Below are positions 10,700 through 24,603 of a DNA stretch of 64,000 nt, one piece after another. The stretch lies in the sequence record OR352941.1, one strand, 5' to 3'. Under the pieces are notes generated by a model that was not told the DNA's origin, ran no database searches, and saw only the letters and a program-made list of their open reading frames with translations. Each line of letters begins with the position of its first letter. Position 1 is the first letter of the stretch. Made by a program: the position numbers and the translations under genes. Origin of the DNA: Escherichia phage AV111.

Positions 10700-10717
10700 A
10701 AGCTCCCGAAGGAGCTT
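10700..10717 (-). terminator. terminator-like hairpin AAGCUCC-UUCG-GGAGCUU overlapping the HNH gene stop
   Basis: 7-bp stem, UUCG loop, U-rich tail. Confidence 0.55.
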
Positions 10718-11513
10718 AGGACATCCAACACATTTTATAACCTTTGCAGGTTCTGTTAGGATTATTTAATGCTTTCAATATATTAGAAGACCCTATATCT
10801 AAATACTCTCTTAATTCATAAAGATAGTTAAAATCAATAGTTTCACCTGTTTTTACACTTGTGATTCTTATAGGCCTTCTTTCATATTTAGATTTATACA
10901 ACTCTCTAGTCTTAGCTTTAGTTTCTTCTGACCTAGGAGTGTATGGTTTAAATCCTTTTGTTTTAAATGTTTCCATTCTTGATTTAGTTATTTTATCCCG
11001 GTGTTCTTTTGTTTTTACAGGTGCTTTTCGCCCATTCTCCCGAGATAACTTGTTGGCCTGTATTATTTTATCTATTGCTTCTTGCGTATGAGTTTTACCA
11101 TAAAATGGATTTAATTCGCCTATACGTTGTGAAGCAATATGTGACATTAATTCTCTTGTTGCTTTAGTATGTTTTTTACCTTTAAATGGGTTGCCATTTT
11201 TAGCAATCCATTCTTTCATAAATCTAGAGTGCTCTTTAGAGAATTCTTGTTTAAGCCAATCATAATCTCTAGAATTTCTAGCTCCCATGTAAAAAGCTCT
11301 AATAGCCATAAGCATAGAACGGTTCTTATGAATTTTATAAAGCAATAAATGGGCGATAAAATGCTCTCTAGGGGTCATTTTAACTAGATTTGATTTAGCA
11401 TTACTCCCGCCCATAGATTTAGGCAAAATATGGTGAGTTTCAGTATAATTAGGAATAGTGCTGCGGTTTTTAGCCGCAGCGATAAGTTTATCATAAATTT
11501 TACGATAATTCAT
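10716..11513 (-). CDS. HNH homing endonuclease (Mob-like, NUMOD repeats)
   Basis: HHILPKS...NLV..T..EH HNH motif; ATG at 11513 overlaps gene 39 stop (TAATG); track ORF start is an upstream alternative codon. Confidence 0.8.
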   Translation of the reverse strand: MNYRKIYDKLIAAAKNRSTIPNYTETHHILPKSMGGSNAKSNLVKMTPREHFIAHLLLYKIHKNRSMLMAIRAFYMGARNSRDYDWLKQEFSKEHSRFMKEWIAKNGNPFKGKKHTKATRELMSHIASQRIGELNPFYGKTHTQEAIDKIIQANKLSRENGRKAPVKTKEHRDKITKSRMETFKTKGFKPYTPRSEETKAKTRELYKSKYERRPIRITSVKTGETIDFNYLYELREYLDIGSSNILKALNNPNRTCKGYKMCWMS

Positions 11514-13333
11514 TATCCTAGCATCCAATCTTTACGGAGTTCAGGGTCGTTACCCATGAGCATTTCAAATAGTTCTTTCCAATTTTCAGGAAGTTTAACT
11601 ACGTCGTACACAGGGTTTTGAATCATTTCTTTATATTCATCTCGCTGAAGTGAGCCCAATCCCTTGATGTATCGAATACTATGCTTAGGCAGTGTATCTT
11701 TAACTTCTTCATACTCAGCTACAGTATAAAACCATTTTTGAGTTTTGCCAATTTGTGCAATAATTACAGGCGTTTTAACAAAGCGAATACGTCCTTGTTC
11801 AAACAATTCAGGCCAATTACTAAAGAAAGCAAGCAAAGCCGGATAAATGCTTCCAAGACCGTCATGATCGGCATCGGTCATAATTGCAATATTACGATAG
11901 TTCGTATTCTCTGCCTTTTCACCAAGAATAAGACCTGTGATAGCACAGATATCAAAGAGCTCTTTGTTCTTCATCATATCAGCATATGACATACCCCAGC
12001 TATTCATCACCTTACCACGTAATGGGAATCCGCCGTGTAGTTCACGGTCACGAACATCAATGAGATAACCAATTGCCGAATCACCTTCTGTTAAGAACAA
12101 TGTTGTATCTGCATCTTTACCACATTGGTTAGCTTTAATATGCTTATGAACCTTAGCTTTAGTTGCCTTTTTAGCTGCTTTAGTTTCTGCAGCCTTTTCT
12201 GCTGCCAATTTACGAGCTAATGCTGCTTCAACAATAGGCATAATCAAGGCTTCGTTTTTAAGAAGTGCCTGAGCAATTTTCTTAGCATCTAATTGGATAT
12301 GATTACGAATATCACCATACGTTGACGTTAAACGTTCTTTAGTCTGAGAATCAAAACGCATGTTGCTCATGTCTCTAATAAACATCAACATTGTGAGACA
12401 TTCTTTAACACGAGCTTTAGTGACTTCAATACCCTTATATTTCTTTTTAATACCTGGCAAAAGATGTTCGCAGATATCATCCATTACGCATTCAACATGA
12501 TGACCGCCGTTTTTAGTATGGATGTTATTCACATAAGTTAAATGACGGAAGCCATCTGGTGATGTTGTGAATGCTATAGAGACTTTATCATTTTCTTGAA
12601 TGATGTTATCTTCACCAAATTGTTTAGCAAATCGTTTAAAATTACCATCAACCTTTTTACCATTAAATGTGAACTTGATATCAGGATAAACGACTGCCAA
12701 TGTTTGAAGTCGATCTAAAGTAATATCTAAATAAATTTGAGATAAATTATGCTCTTCAAATGAAGAGAAATCAGGAGTGAAGATTACTTTAGTGCCTTTA
12801 CATTTAGATTTCTTAGAAGACCATGATTTGTTTTCCATTCCGTTTGAACAGTTAACAGTGATTTCATTTTCGCCATCTGACGTGATGCCTGTAAACAACG
12901 TAGAGAAGATATTAGTTAAACTACTCCCGACGCCGTTCATACCACCAGTCTTGCGTTCAGAATCATCACCAAAGTTACCACCAGCCTTTGGAATAGTCCA
13001 GGCTGCTACAGGCCCAGGAATTTGTTCACCTGTTTGGTCGGTAACTAAACCTTGAGGAATACCACGTCCGTTATCTTCCACCGAAACTTGATTATTTTTA
13101 ATTTGCACGTCAATTTTATTTGCAAACTTAAATGATGTACGAATAGCTTCATCAACCGAGTTGTCAATAATCTCATCGATTAATTTAACCAGACCAGGAA
13201 CATATTCAACTTGTTGATATTTACCAAACAAAAAACGCTCGTGGGCTTCTTTGGCCGAAGAACCAATATACATGCCACTACGTTTCTTAATATGTTCTAC
13301 ATCTGACAGTACCTTAATTTCATTTTTAATCAT
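11513..13333 (-). CDS. 39: DNA topoisomerase II large subunit gp39 (fused 39+60 ORF)
   Basis: 606 aa GyrB-like; MIKNEIKVLSDVEHIKKRSGMYIGSS matches T4 gp39; single ORF covers the region split into 39 and 60 in T4. Confidence 0.93.
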   Translation of the reverse strand: MIKNEIKVLSDVEHIKKRSGMYIGSSAKEAHERFLFGKYQQVEYVPGLVKLIDEIIDNSVDEAIRTSFKFANKIDVQIKNNQVSVEDNGRGIPQGLVTDQTGEQIPGPVAAWTIPKAGGNFGDDSERKTGGMNGVGSSLTNIFSTLFTGITSDGENEITVNCSNGMENKSWSSKKSKCKGTKVIFTPDFSSFEEHNLSQIYLDITLDRLQTLAVVYPDIKFTFNGKKVDGNFKRFAKQFGEDNIIQENDKVSIAFTTSPDGFRHLTYVNNIHTKNGGHHVECVMDDICEHLLPGIKKKYKGIEVTKARVKECLTMLMFIRDMSNMRFDSQTKERLTSTYGDIRNHIQLDAKKIAQALLKNEALIMPIVEAALARKLAAEKAAETKAAKKATKAKVHKHIKANQCGKDADTTLFLTEGDSAIGYLIDVRDRELHGGFPLRGKVMNSWGMSYADMMKNKELFDICAITGLILGEKAENTNYRNIAIMTDADHDGLGSIYPALLAFFSNWPELFEQGRIRFVKTPVIIAQIGKTQKWFYTVAEYEEVKDTLPKHSIRYIKGLGSLQRDEYKEMIQNPVYDVVKLPENWKELFEMLMGNDPELRKDWMLG

Positions 13334-22819: not shown

Positions 22820-22835
22820 TCTAGAAACGAAAAAA

Positions 22836-22853
22836 GGAATCCCGAAGGATTCC
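22836..22853 (-). terminator. intrinsic terminator GGAAUCC-UUCG-GGAUUCC plus U6, downstream of soc
   Basis: perfect 7-bp stem, UUCG loop, U-run. Confidence 0.65.
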
Positions 22854-22862
22854 TTAAATTAT

Positions 22863-23099: not shown

Positions 23100-23130
23100 A
23101 ATTAACTCCTTTGTTGTTTAATTACAGGTG

Positions 23131-23138
23131 TATTTATA
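23131..23138 (-). promoter_or_regulatory. late promoter TATAAATA (minus strand) about 32 nt upstream of the soc ATG
   Basis: exact T4 late consensus octamer. Confidence 0.6.
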
Positions 23139-23144
23139 ACTTAA

Positions 23145-23666
23145 TTAGTAACCATTATCCTGACGTTCAAAGTTGTGTTGGTTTTTCAAGTAGTAAAGTT
23201 TAAAGATTTCTTCTGCTGTAAGACCAAGACCCTGGAACATATTCAGAACGAAATGAAGAATATCAATCATCTCAAATTTAATTTCAAGCTGGTCTTCAGG
23301 AGACAGTTCATCGATACGACGATTTCGATATTCAGCATGTTGTGCTTTCCATGGCTTCCATACAGAGCTAGCGGCTTTTTCACCATTGCTCATACCGCCA
23401 AGTGAAGTCAGCAGTTCACGGAATTCGTCATCAATATAATCTTTCTGATTACGCAGCCAATCAACAACATCGCCTGCAGTGGCCAATTCATCAGGATGTT
23501 TGTTATGTTCAGGCTTGTCATTTGCCAGACGAACCTGTAAAGATTTCTGCATATCAAGCATTACCTGCAGTGGGTCTTTATCTTCGTGAATCAGAGCATT
23601 AAAATAAGCTTCTTCTGCTTTATCAACGCCTTCGATCAGTTGACTACATTCGTTGAAATGTGGCAT
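23145..23666 (-). CDS. 56: dCTP pyrophosphatase gp56 (MazG-like)
   Basis: internal ATG at 23666 with AAGGAA RBS; MPHFNECSQLIEG...WKPWKA...LEIKFEMIDILHFVLNMF matches T4 gp56 as recalled; about 173 aa. Confidence 0.85.
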   Translation of the reverse strand: MPHFNECSQLIEGVDKAEEAYFNALIHEDKDPLQVMLDMQKSLQVRLANDKPEHNKHPDELATAGDVVDWLRNQKDYIDDEFRELLTSLGGMSNGEKAASSVWKPWKAQHAEYRNRRIDELSPEDQLEIKFEMIDILHFVLNMFQGLGLTAEEIFKLYYLKNQHNFERQDNGY

Positions 23667-24317
23667 GTTATTTTCCTTTCTTATGAAGTTTTCTATCATA
23701 TGTCTATAGCAGATATTAGGATAACCTGCCTTGACAGCTATTTTATTAAATTTTGTGCGCTTAGGTCTATTATTATAAACCCATAATTCATAAAGCGCAT
23801 CATAACTATTCCATATTTCTCCTCGCCTAGGATTTGGTAAACCATATCGAGGCGAATTTTTACCGCTAAATCTTCCTTTTCGGGCTTTACTCATATTAGC
23901 CTTGGCTTCATCGGATATAATTTTACCTTTATGAGCTAGACGCATTTTAGCTTTAGTTTCTTCTGGAGTCTTTTTACCTTTAATCCATGACGGCTTGCCA
24001 TATCTAGGATTATTTTCACCCGAGAAAAGAACAGAGTTTTGGATTTTAAGGGTTTCTATTAATCTACTTGTTAATTTAACACCTTTATTATATCGCATTA
24101 AATTTACAGCATAATGCAATCCTCTCACATCTGGATATATTTTAGTTAATAATCTATGAGCTATAAAATGCTCACGCGCAGTTAACTCAACAAGATTGTT
24201 TTTGCCATCTGCTCCTCCCATACATCTAGGAATTATATGATGGCGTTCTTTATATCCGCAAAGCCGCCGGCATTTAGCTTTTGTAATTAAAGCAGAGTAA
24301 ATTTTTTGGTAATTCAC
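23667..24317 (-). CDS. HNH homing endonuclease, in frame with gene 56 (no stop before 56)
   Basis: N-terminus MNYQKIY...HHIIPRCMGG..NLVELTAREH is paralogous to HNH 10716..11513; initiates at GTG 24317; the adjacent ATG at 24319 is out of frame. Confidence 0.6.
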
Positions 24318-24405
24318 ATATATCCTTTCAATTCAGTATAAAAGAGTTTAATTCTAACATTAATTTTATAAAGCGTAATAAATAATAGGTAACTAAGGAG
24401 ATATT

Positions 24406-24603
24406 ATGTTTAAACTTCCGTCGTTAATCAACGCTATTAAAGGCAATAAAAAGAAAACTGCTATCGCTGCAATAGTTGTAGGTGGCATTATTTCATGGAA
24501 CTTCGGGATTGCACCATTGTTAGTTGCCCATGGTATTATAGTTCCTTCCGTTCCATTGGATACTGTAGTTGATTTGGCCTTTGCTATTATAGGGCTTGTT
24601 TAA
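24406..24603 (+). CDS. small hydrophobic protein (65 aa) on the plus strand
   Basis: AAGGAG RBS 5 nt before the ATG; intergenic between 56 and 61; convergent with gene 61. Confidence 0.45.
   Translation: MFKLPSLINAIKGNKKKTAIAAIVVGGIISWNFGIAPLLVAHGIIVPSVPLDTVVDLAFAIIGLV

Follow-up and report, generated by a model that had tools for sequence, protein, structure and literature searches.

Escherichia phage AV111 (OR352941) is a Mosigvirus recovered from wastewater, sequenced on an Illumina MiSeq (2x250) and able to infect 46 of the tested extended-spectrum beta-lactamase (ESBL)/AmpC E. coli strains (PMC10844046). We analyzed a 64,000-nt stretch of its genome (hereafter, the window) and describe here a minus-strand locus (23145..24317) at which a homing endonuclease gene reads in frame into gene 56, which encodes the phage dCTPase/dUTPase gp56. 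Together they form a single 390-aa open reading frame (ORF) that opens at a GTG, and an exact look-up identified its product as the protein WPK34241.1, encoded on a 172,602-bp contig. Both the ORF listing and the junction itself, AGA AAG GAA AAT AAC ATG CCA, bore out the original prediction that one frame runs through the two parts with no intervening stop codon. Its assignment of the parts to an HNH endonuclease and to gp56 was likewise borne out: ORF residues 1–217 match PHROG 655 (homing endonuclease, E = 5e-58) and carry Pfam NUMOD3 (26.3 bits against a cutoff of 20.4), and residues 218–390 are 72% identical to T4 gp56 across 173 aa (BLASTP), matching Pfam dUTPase_2 (26.9 against a cutoff of 22.9) and PHROG 173 (E = 4e-44). 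Gene 56 also has, as had been noted, an independent translation start, in which GAAAGGA is followed by AAATAAC and then by the ATG. The endonuclease-free phage Sf23 has a leader and ATG like those of AV111 gene 56, with a run of five A (A5) that is one base longer than the run of four (A4) in AV111. The features of the locus are listed in Table 1.

Table 1. Features of the fused ORF and its immediate surroundings in AV111, in window coordinates
Feature	Position	Strand	Basis
Resident gene-56 middle-promoter-like site: MotA-box-like GCTTTA, 12 nt, TAGAAT	24351..24374	-	Pattern scan; annotation in fPS-2/fPS-90
GAAAGGA, original gene-56 Shine-Dalgarno now serving the endonuclease; left copy of the 7-nt direct repeat	24323..24329	-	Empty versus occupied sites
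ATGTGA, ATG with immediate stop overlapping the true GTG start	24314..24319	-	ATG 24319-24317, TGA 24316-24314, GTG 24317-24315
Mob-type HNH homing endonuclease moiety, codons 1-217 of the fused ORF	23667..24317	-	PHROG 655, NUMOD3, homology to T4 MobD/MobE
Second middle-promoter-like site, inside the endonuclease gene: GCTTTA, 13 nt, TATAAT	23772..23796	-	Pattern scan; conservation
GAAAGGA, gene-56 Shine-Dalgarno at the cassette 3' end; right copy of the direct repeat	23674..23680	-	Sequence reading; empty-site comparison
A4 homopolymer, the lesion (canonical, A5)	23671..23674	-	Junction readings, alignment, junction BLAST
Gene 56, dCTPase/dUTPase, 173 aa, own ATG at 23666, nested in the 390-aa ORF	23145..23666	-	T4 gp56 homology, Pfam dUTPase_2, PHROG 173
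Co-conversion tract, first ~40 nt of gene 56 of donor type (Tequatrovirus Sf23/fPS-2), ATGCCACATTTCAACGAATGTAGTCAACTGATCGAAGGCG	23626..23666	-	Six-way alignment

Homology identifies the element as a Mob-family free-standing HNH homing endonuclease. In a BLASTP comparison with T4, its best match was MobD (E = 1e-33, 34% identity over 247 aa, residues 1–211 against 1–246), followed by MobE (E = 2e-32, 63% identity over the catalytic 82 aa), MobB (E = 4e-20) and MobC (E = 3e-17). The catalytic domain occupies roughly residues 1–60, NUMOD3 motifs lie around residues 100–165, and a C-terminal DNA-binding region follows. The catalytic HNH residues (general-base His, structural Asn and metal-binding His), represented by H26, N41, H50 and H54, were invariant across 77 aligned homologs, and all are present in the AV111 protein. 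Sequence searches of PDB and of NCBIfam returned no match. The window holds a paralogous Mob-type HNH gene at 10716-11513(-), and the paralogy, already pointed out from the sequence, is seen as 56% identity across the first 64 residues. This second gene immediately follows gene 39, which is unsplit (11513-13333, 606 aa), and takes the place of the 37-aa mobA remnant of T4; MobB and MobE are its nearest relatives in that phage. Its start reads ATGAATTAT, and its ATG overlaps the gene-39 stop as TAATGA, an arrangement as in T4 nrdA/mobE.

The 5' end of the fused ORF reads GAAAGGA TAT ATG TGA ATT ACC, so that, as originally described, the ATG is followed directly by a stop codon and only the overlapping GTG (24317) opens the long frame. 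The further claim that this ATG is a frameshifted start did not hold. All 11 other copies that we read at the gene-56 site are annotated as starting at the GTG, whereas the adjoining ATG varies, being replaced by CTGTGA in Klebsiella-phage copies (GGATATCTGTGAATTACC) and by GTGTGA in phage Killian (GGATATGTGTGAATTACC); the divergent VR5-type relatives alone begin at an ATG. The GTG-initiated N-terminus (MNYQKIY...) aligns from residue 1 with T4 MobE, MobD, MobB and MobC (MNYxKIY...), and the next in-frame Met is residue 33, past the catalytic His26. Because the GTG is invariant, the ATG is variable and homology extends to residue 1, we regard the GTG as the normal start of this lineage and not as damage. 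T4 mobA is also predicted to start at GUG (PMC2988022). As a speculation, the ATG-TGA start-stop that overlies the GTG in AV111 may lower initiation further.

About 56 phage records, spread over three genera (Tequatrovirus, Jiaodavirus and Mosigvirus), carry the 651-nt endonuclease gene at the same position, between gene 56 and a small reverse-strand ORF that follows the primase gene 61, and the canonical endonuclease is already annotated in dozens of genomes. Identity to the AV111 copy was 96%–99% in Tequatrovirus (E. coli and Yersinia phages) and about 91% in Jiaodavirus (Klebsiella phages); one carrier in the phage collection was a Mosigvirus, Shigella phage SSE1. We fetched 10 non-Mosigvirus loci, and the endonuclease was annotated as a separate gene in all of them. 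Nine shared a 651-nt gene of 216 aa with the same GTG and with gene 56 beginning one base past the stop; in the tenth, PYPS2T, the gene was 684 nt long. The nearest relatives of AV111 in the phage collection (WFL6982, WFK and G2469, about 98.5% identity over the adjacent 10 kb) all have an empty site, and occupied and empty sites coexist among close relatives in several genera, a presence/absence polymorphism.

A comparison with relatives that lack the insertion, proposed with the original prediction as a check, defined the insertion point. With a slash marking that point, the empty sites of G2469, T4 and Sf23 read GAATTGAAAGGA / AAAA(A)TAA..ATG, that of Tequatrovirus Sf23 being ...ATGAATTGAAAGGA / AAAATAACATGCCACATTTC... 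in full. Occupied genomes read ...GAATTGAAAGGA / TATATGTG...(endonuclease)...CATAAGAAAGGA / AAAATAACATGCC... at their two junctions. Three things follow from these readings: the element sits between the gene-56 Shine-Dalgarno and the gene-56 ATG, copies of a 7-nt GAAAGGA repeat lie on both sides of it, and its last codons together with the TAA are gene-56 leader and not element sequence. In the endonuclease-free Jiaodavirus vB_KpnM_GF (locus L020, about 395–435), the native gene-56 leader AGCAAACTTAATAGAAAGGAAAAATAACATG resembles the endonuclease 3' end AGAAAACTTCATAAGAAAGGAAAAATAACATG; either the last ~8 endonuclease codons originated as the gene-56 leader of a previous host, captured by the element, or a remnant of the element persists in GF after its loss.

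The sole structural lesion in the AV111 copy is the loss of one A (A5 to A4) before the stop codon. The canonical A5 junction, GAA AAA TAA C ATG, carries the stop and yields two genes. In the A4 junction of AV111 and SSE1, GAA AAT AAC ATG, the two are fused in frame. The A6 junction of the PYPS2T group, GAA AAA ATA ACA TGC ... TGA, takes the endonuclease 31 nt into gene 56, out of frame. Given the canonical TAA-C-ATG geometry, deleting a single base anywhere in the last codons shifts the endonuclease into the frame of gene 56, and inserting one shifts it into the third frame. Being a real gene, gene 56 keeps its own frame open, and read-through is thus no statistical surprise. The fusion is the mechanical outcome of the change from A5 to A4, and further explanation is unneeded. 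The length of the leader run also varies among phages without the endonuclease (GGAAAAC in T4, GGAAAAAA in Mosigvirus and GGAAAAA in Sf23), and gene-56 initiation therefore does not constrain it tightly. In Yersinia phage PYPS2T (locus L002, 2188-2240), the A6 allele as recorded adds 11 endonuclease residues (...KEKITCHISTNVVN) over the 31-nt overlap.

Searching with BLAST for a 70-nt segment that spans the AV111 junction, we obtained 56 junction-spanning records, of which 50 were A5 (with the endonuclease and gene 56 annotated separately), five A6 and one A4; AV111 itself lies outside the searched phage collection and is not among them. SSE1 was the sole 70/70-nt match, A5 records needing one extra base and A6 records two. 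Only one of the 56 junction records was thus fused. The uninterrupted ORF did recur in independent genomes. The protein collection held three distinct 390-aa fusion proteins, from SSE1 (QBZ71023.1), from AV111 and from a 170,875-bp contig within an E. coli assembly (EPO1808421.1, a genome compared through its protein sequence). The gp56 half is of Mosigvirus type in all three, and several residues in each half vary among them. No cluster representative of fusion length was found among 475 homologs, and longer relatives in the protein database lacked any host-gene domain. Exact-pattern scans for the junction had no match in IMG/VR viral contigs (A4–A7) or in JGI metagenome contigs (A4–A6), and a peptide-based scan of viral contigs recovered only the VR5-type divergent copies and one unrelated paralog.

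These counts bear on one objection, that the A4 run is a sequencing or assembly error and that the true sequence is A5 with two ordinary separate genes. The difference is indeed a single base in a homopolymer, 50 of the 56 records are A5, and the A6 records (PYPS2T, PYps10T and PYps11T), which are closely related, all come from one laboratory. Yet three distinct genomes, each from an independent source and with several residue differences among their fusion proteins, carry A4, and MiSeq 2x250 chemistry, used for AV111, seldom miscounts a run of four or five bases. With three independent A4 sources and Illumina chemistry for AV111, a miscall is very unlikely, and we give the error explanation hardly any weight.

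We attach even less credence to programmed recoding, in which slippage at the A-run, either by the ribosome (a -1 frameshift) or during transcription, would restore the TAA and release a 216-aa endonuclease from the A4 allele. In its favor, the -1 frame does read GGA AAA TAA. However, the zero frame, AAG GAA AAT AAC, contains no X XXY YYZ slippery heptamer, and no downstream stimulatory structure was found (z = +0.40 against shuffled sequences). Appreciable slippage by RNA polymerase needs roughly 8–9 A, and a run of four falls far short of this.

We then considered how the Mosigvirus copies arose. In a six-way alignment, the flanks of AV111 were of Mosigvirus type and nearly identical to those of empty-site G2469 up to CTGAATTGAAAGGA, and the endonuclease gene had 99% DNA identity to Tequatrovirus copies. 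That identity of 99% holds between genera whose flanks agree at about 89%. Over its first ~40 nt gene 56 is of donor type, with a 5' end seen also in the endonuclease-free Sf23, and past about 23626 it reverts to Mosigvirus sequence. SSE1 has the same left junction as AV111, with its right crossover shifted by one position. Mosigvirus flanks, a Tequatrovirus-like gene and a short tract form a textbook signature of homing with short co-conversion. The simplest reading is one acquisition by Mosigviruses, followed or accompanied by the loss of one A.

The expression signals at the locus suggest how the two proteins may be made. A scan for the middle-promoter-like pattern GCTTTA-N11-13-TANNNT found 24 matches in the window against 3.05 expected, and this eight-fold enrichment indicates that the pattern picks out real signals; a sigma-70 consensus scan of the window stayed at background (9 matches against 7.3 expected). 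One match lies upstream of the endonuclease, at a site whose homolog is annotated as 'predicted middle promoter' in Yersinia phages fPS-2 and fPS-90, and the T4 equivalent at the gene-56 middle-promoter place reads TGCTTAC...GATATAAT. A second match falls within the endonuclease gene itself, 106 nt before the gene-56 ATG, where it would yield a transcript of gene 56 alone. Its GCTTTA and TATAAT are kept in every copy, the divergent ones included, and neighboring synonymous positions vary; it is probably a middle promoter that serves gene 56. Mob and Seg genes have been described as promoter-less cassettes that are poorly translated and may embed promoters for downstream genes (PMC2988022); a GUG just 5 nt past the GGA, a weak initiation site, fits that poor translation. 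A 7-bp hairpin pairs the Shine-Dalgarno at the endonuclease start, but it scores no better than shuffled sequences (z = -1.05) and is not conserved in Tequatrovirus flanks.

In T4, oriA lies 22 nt inside gene 56 (NC_000866, position 16763), and the gene-56 middle transcript is its primer RNA. In carriers of the element the resident middle promoter has been moved 651 nt from the corresponding point, and the embedded site would restore a nearby promoter. A 65-aa hydrophobic ORF at 24406-24603(+) occupies the interval between primase and the gene-56 promoter, where T4 has dam; it is conserved in Mosigvirus and many Tequatrovirus genomes, labeled hypothetical there and a predicted membrane protein in Sf23. 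On the other side, a late-promoter-like TATAAATA lies just past the gene-56 stop and before soc (about 23128-23135, minus strand), and a strong bidirectional terminator-like hairpin, AAGGAATCC-TTCG-GGATTCCTT with a T-run, follows soc (22834-22855, minus strand).

We consider it likely that a homing endonuclease gene inserted before gene 56, that the loss of an A fused the two frames, and that gp56 is made chiefly in its free form, with little of the fusion arising alongside it to near-neutral effect. The cassette would have arrived without a promoter of its own, leaving the resident gene-56 middle promoter to drive both the endonuclease gene and gene 56. Translation of the endonuclease would use the resident Shine-Dalgarno and a weak GTG placed just 5 nt after the GGA, and the 3' end of the cassette would supply gene 56 with a replacement Shine-Dalgarno. 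The canonical stop would be borrowed as well, from the leader TAA between Shine-Dalgarno and ATG (GGA AAA ATA ACA TG read as GAA AAA TAA). A Mosigvirus would then have gained the element by homing from a Tequatrovirus-type donor, with about 40 nt of gene 56 co-converted, and within that lineage the A5 run would have lost one A, placing the endonuclease in the gene-56 frame. From the long transcript, which spans both genes, the weak GTG should yield little 390-aa fusion and the strong internal site should yield gp56; the short transcript from the embedded promoter would carry gene 56 alone. With its Shine-Dalgarno and ATG intact, gp56 would still be made mainly as the free 173-aa protein, and the fusion would be tolerated as a near-neutral accident of the cassette architecture, not an adaptation. 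AV111 is vigorous, infecting 46 tested strains, and gene-56 function is therefore evidently not lost; together with the internal start and the embedded promoter, this vigor is the ground on which we argue for free gp56 as the main product.

Several observations weigh against this account. The embedded site lies in a conserved coding segment, and protein constraint alone could explain its conservation. Significant RNA structure was not found at either translation start, and the gene-56 start folds like its shuffles. The proportions of fusion and free gp56 are our reading of the sequence. All three Mosigvirus copies found are A4 and none is A5, and the A4 allele has persisted through some divergence, as selection for the fusion would also have it do.

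Such selection is the premise of a different explanation, in which the HNH–gp56 protein is bifunctional and maintained, either because cutting or targeting is altered through an oligomeric enzyme or through the dNTP-synthesis and replication machinery, or because the element becomes harder to lose. The shared A4 of all three Mosigvirus copies, the intact catalytic residues, and the retention of the allele while the flanks diverged by 1%–4% are in its favor. However, the fusion is missing from 55 of the 56 copies across three genera, where purifying selection acts on the free 216-aa protein; the opposite change, to A6, is apparently tolerated too, so that the leader-encoded C-terminal tail is seemingly unconstrained; and longer database relatives are not fused to host genes. 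The private changes of the A4 lineages, mostly non-synonymous, also look more like relaxed constraint, although with n of about 7 this is not significant. On balance we think a selected bifunctional protein quite improbable. gp56 belongs to the phage dNTP-synthesis machinery at the replication fork. A more specific version, that A4 was selected in Mosigviruses since joining a Mob nickase to oligomeric gp56 changes the action of the nuclease, is more doubtful again. If it were true, double-strand breaks could result from paired nicking domains, or the nuclease could be brought to replicating DNA by its gp56 partner, and the allele would be a first step to the domestication of a homing endonuclease through fusion with an essential host enzyme.

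A contrary possibility is that the element is decaying, the loss of the stop having inactivated the endonuclease (e.g., with gp56 blocking the C-terminal DNA-binding domain) and left a young pseudogene whose intact look is owed to its recency alone. Homing endonuclease genes are expected to degenerate after fixation (the Goddard–Burt cycle), and decayed relatives exist, among them the 37-aa mobA remnant of T4 and a truncated copy on an IMG/VR contig (IMGVR_UViG_2974741249_000001; locus L006, 1440-2260). That divergent copy lacks the first ~16 codons and abuts the primase 3' end; next come an incomplete second copy of the gene-56 5' end and then a second promoter, a Shine-Dalgarno and the gene-56 start, and the endonuclease copy looks rearranged and decaying. 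Among canonical copies, the ratio of non-synonymous to synonymous change (pN/pS) was 0.08–0.13 with synonymous-site differences of up to 32%, a pattern of purifying selection from which we conclude that the element normally encodes a working protein. Private changes in the A4 and A6 lineages were few and mostly non-synonymous (H18R, G20C and two synonymous changes in AV111, A9D in SSE1, and an I-to-N change in the genome of EPO1808421.1). This excess hints at relaxed constraint, with about seven changes and no significance, and the substitutions are too few to test relaxed selection. Against decay, no stop codon, frameshift or deletion interrupts the 651 nt, every catalytic residue is in place, and a C-terminal extension alone does not predict lost activity. 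The original prediction had left a choice between a GTG-initiated fusion and a decaying insertion whose frame survives only by read-through into gene 56. The first stands as the sequence-predicted product; the second fits poorly with an ORF of full length that retains 215 of the 216 canonical residues apart from a few point changes. We therefore regard decay as unlikely and prefer the near-neutral fusion described above.

Known systems place the locus in context. T4 MobD and MobE are homologous to the AV111 endonuclease from residue 1, with the MobD match including the C-terminal region, and they resemble it in organization as promoter-less cassettes on a host middle transcript, weakly translated and located beside a nucleotide-metabolism gene (PMC2988022). 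Their sites differ, mobE lying between nrdA and nrdB and mobD between nrdC.11 and mobD.1, whereas the AV111 element sits between the gene-56 Shine-Dalgarno and ATG; it also starts at GTG, has lost its stop and is continuous with the host gene. The canonical form (Yersinia phage fPS-2 g030c, E. coli phage G50 and Klebsiella phage Mexia gp026) shares the site, the GTG and the replacement Shine-Dalgarno, at 91%–99% DNA identity, and differs in having A5, a TAA one base before the gene-56 ATG and a product of 216 aa, where AV111 has A4, no stop and 390 aa. T4 SegF, a GIY-YIG enzyme encoded between gene 56 and soc with gene 56 as its target, is another free-standing homing endonuclease that exploits gene 56, although its nuclease family is a different one and its gene is found on the opposite side of gene 56, as a separate ORF whose 11-nt overlap with gene 56 is out of frame. 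With SegF at the other end, gene 56 emerges as a recurrent homing target. Several carriers have a second homing endonuclease gene between gene 56 and soc (locus L002, 2718-3554; L008, from 2379; L014, 2377-3066), which overlaps the gene-56 3' end at the T4 segF position, so gene 56 can have selfish nucleases on both sides.

Mob insertions are also known to remodel an essential gene whose function is kept, as with mobE in nrdA of Aeromonas phage Aeh1 and mobA between genes 39 and 60 of T4 (PMC2988022), the Aeh1 case being one of 'genes in pieces' (Friedrich et al. 2007, as cited in PMC8351571). In both cases the host gene is split into two polypeptides, whereas in AV111 the element is joined to the host gene. 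In inteins and many organellar group I intron endonucleases, in-frame fusion to the host protein, with the intron ORFs joined to the upstream exon, is a normal, conserved strategy, resolved by proteolysis or protein splicing. The AV111 ORF is like them in that endonuclease and host protein are translated as one polypeptide, and unlike them in being a rare allele in which the endonuclease precedes the host protein, with no sign of processing. We found no description of an HNH–gp56 fusion in the literature.

The main practical point concerns annotation. OR352941 (AV111) and MK639187 (SSE1) each annotate one 390-aa 'homing endonuclease' coding sequence, and the gp56 dCTPase is missing from both; gene 56 should be annotated there as a nested gene (23145..23666 in AV111). 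In protein clustering at 90% identity, the fusion also pulls gp56 and endonuclease sequences together, giving a single cluster of 162 members. The allele itself is real but rare, a probably harmless variant of an ordinary mobile element, and a functional, selected fusion is unlikely. More generally, the locus shows a promoter-less homing endonuclease cassette borrowing the promoter, Shine-Dalgarno and stop codon of its host, and through the borrowed stop the endonuclease C-terminus comes to depend on a short homopolymer of the host leader. Three reading-frame outcomes, the A4 fusion, the A5 stop and the A6 overlap, are on record in phage genomes. If the fused protein is active, they would be a ready-made series on the tolerance of Mob endonucleases to C-terminal cargo; otherwise, A4 would be an ordinary near-neutral variant.

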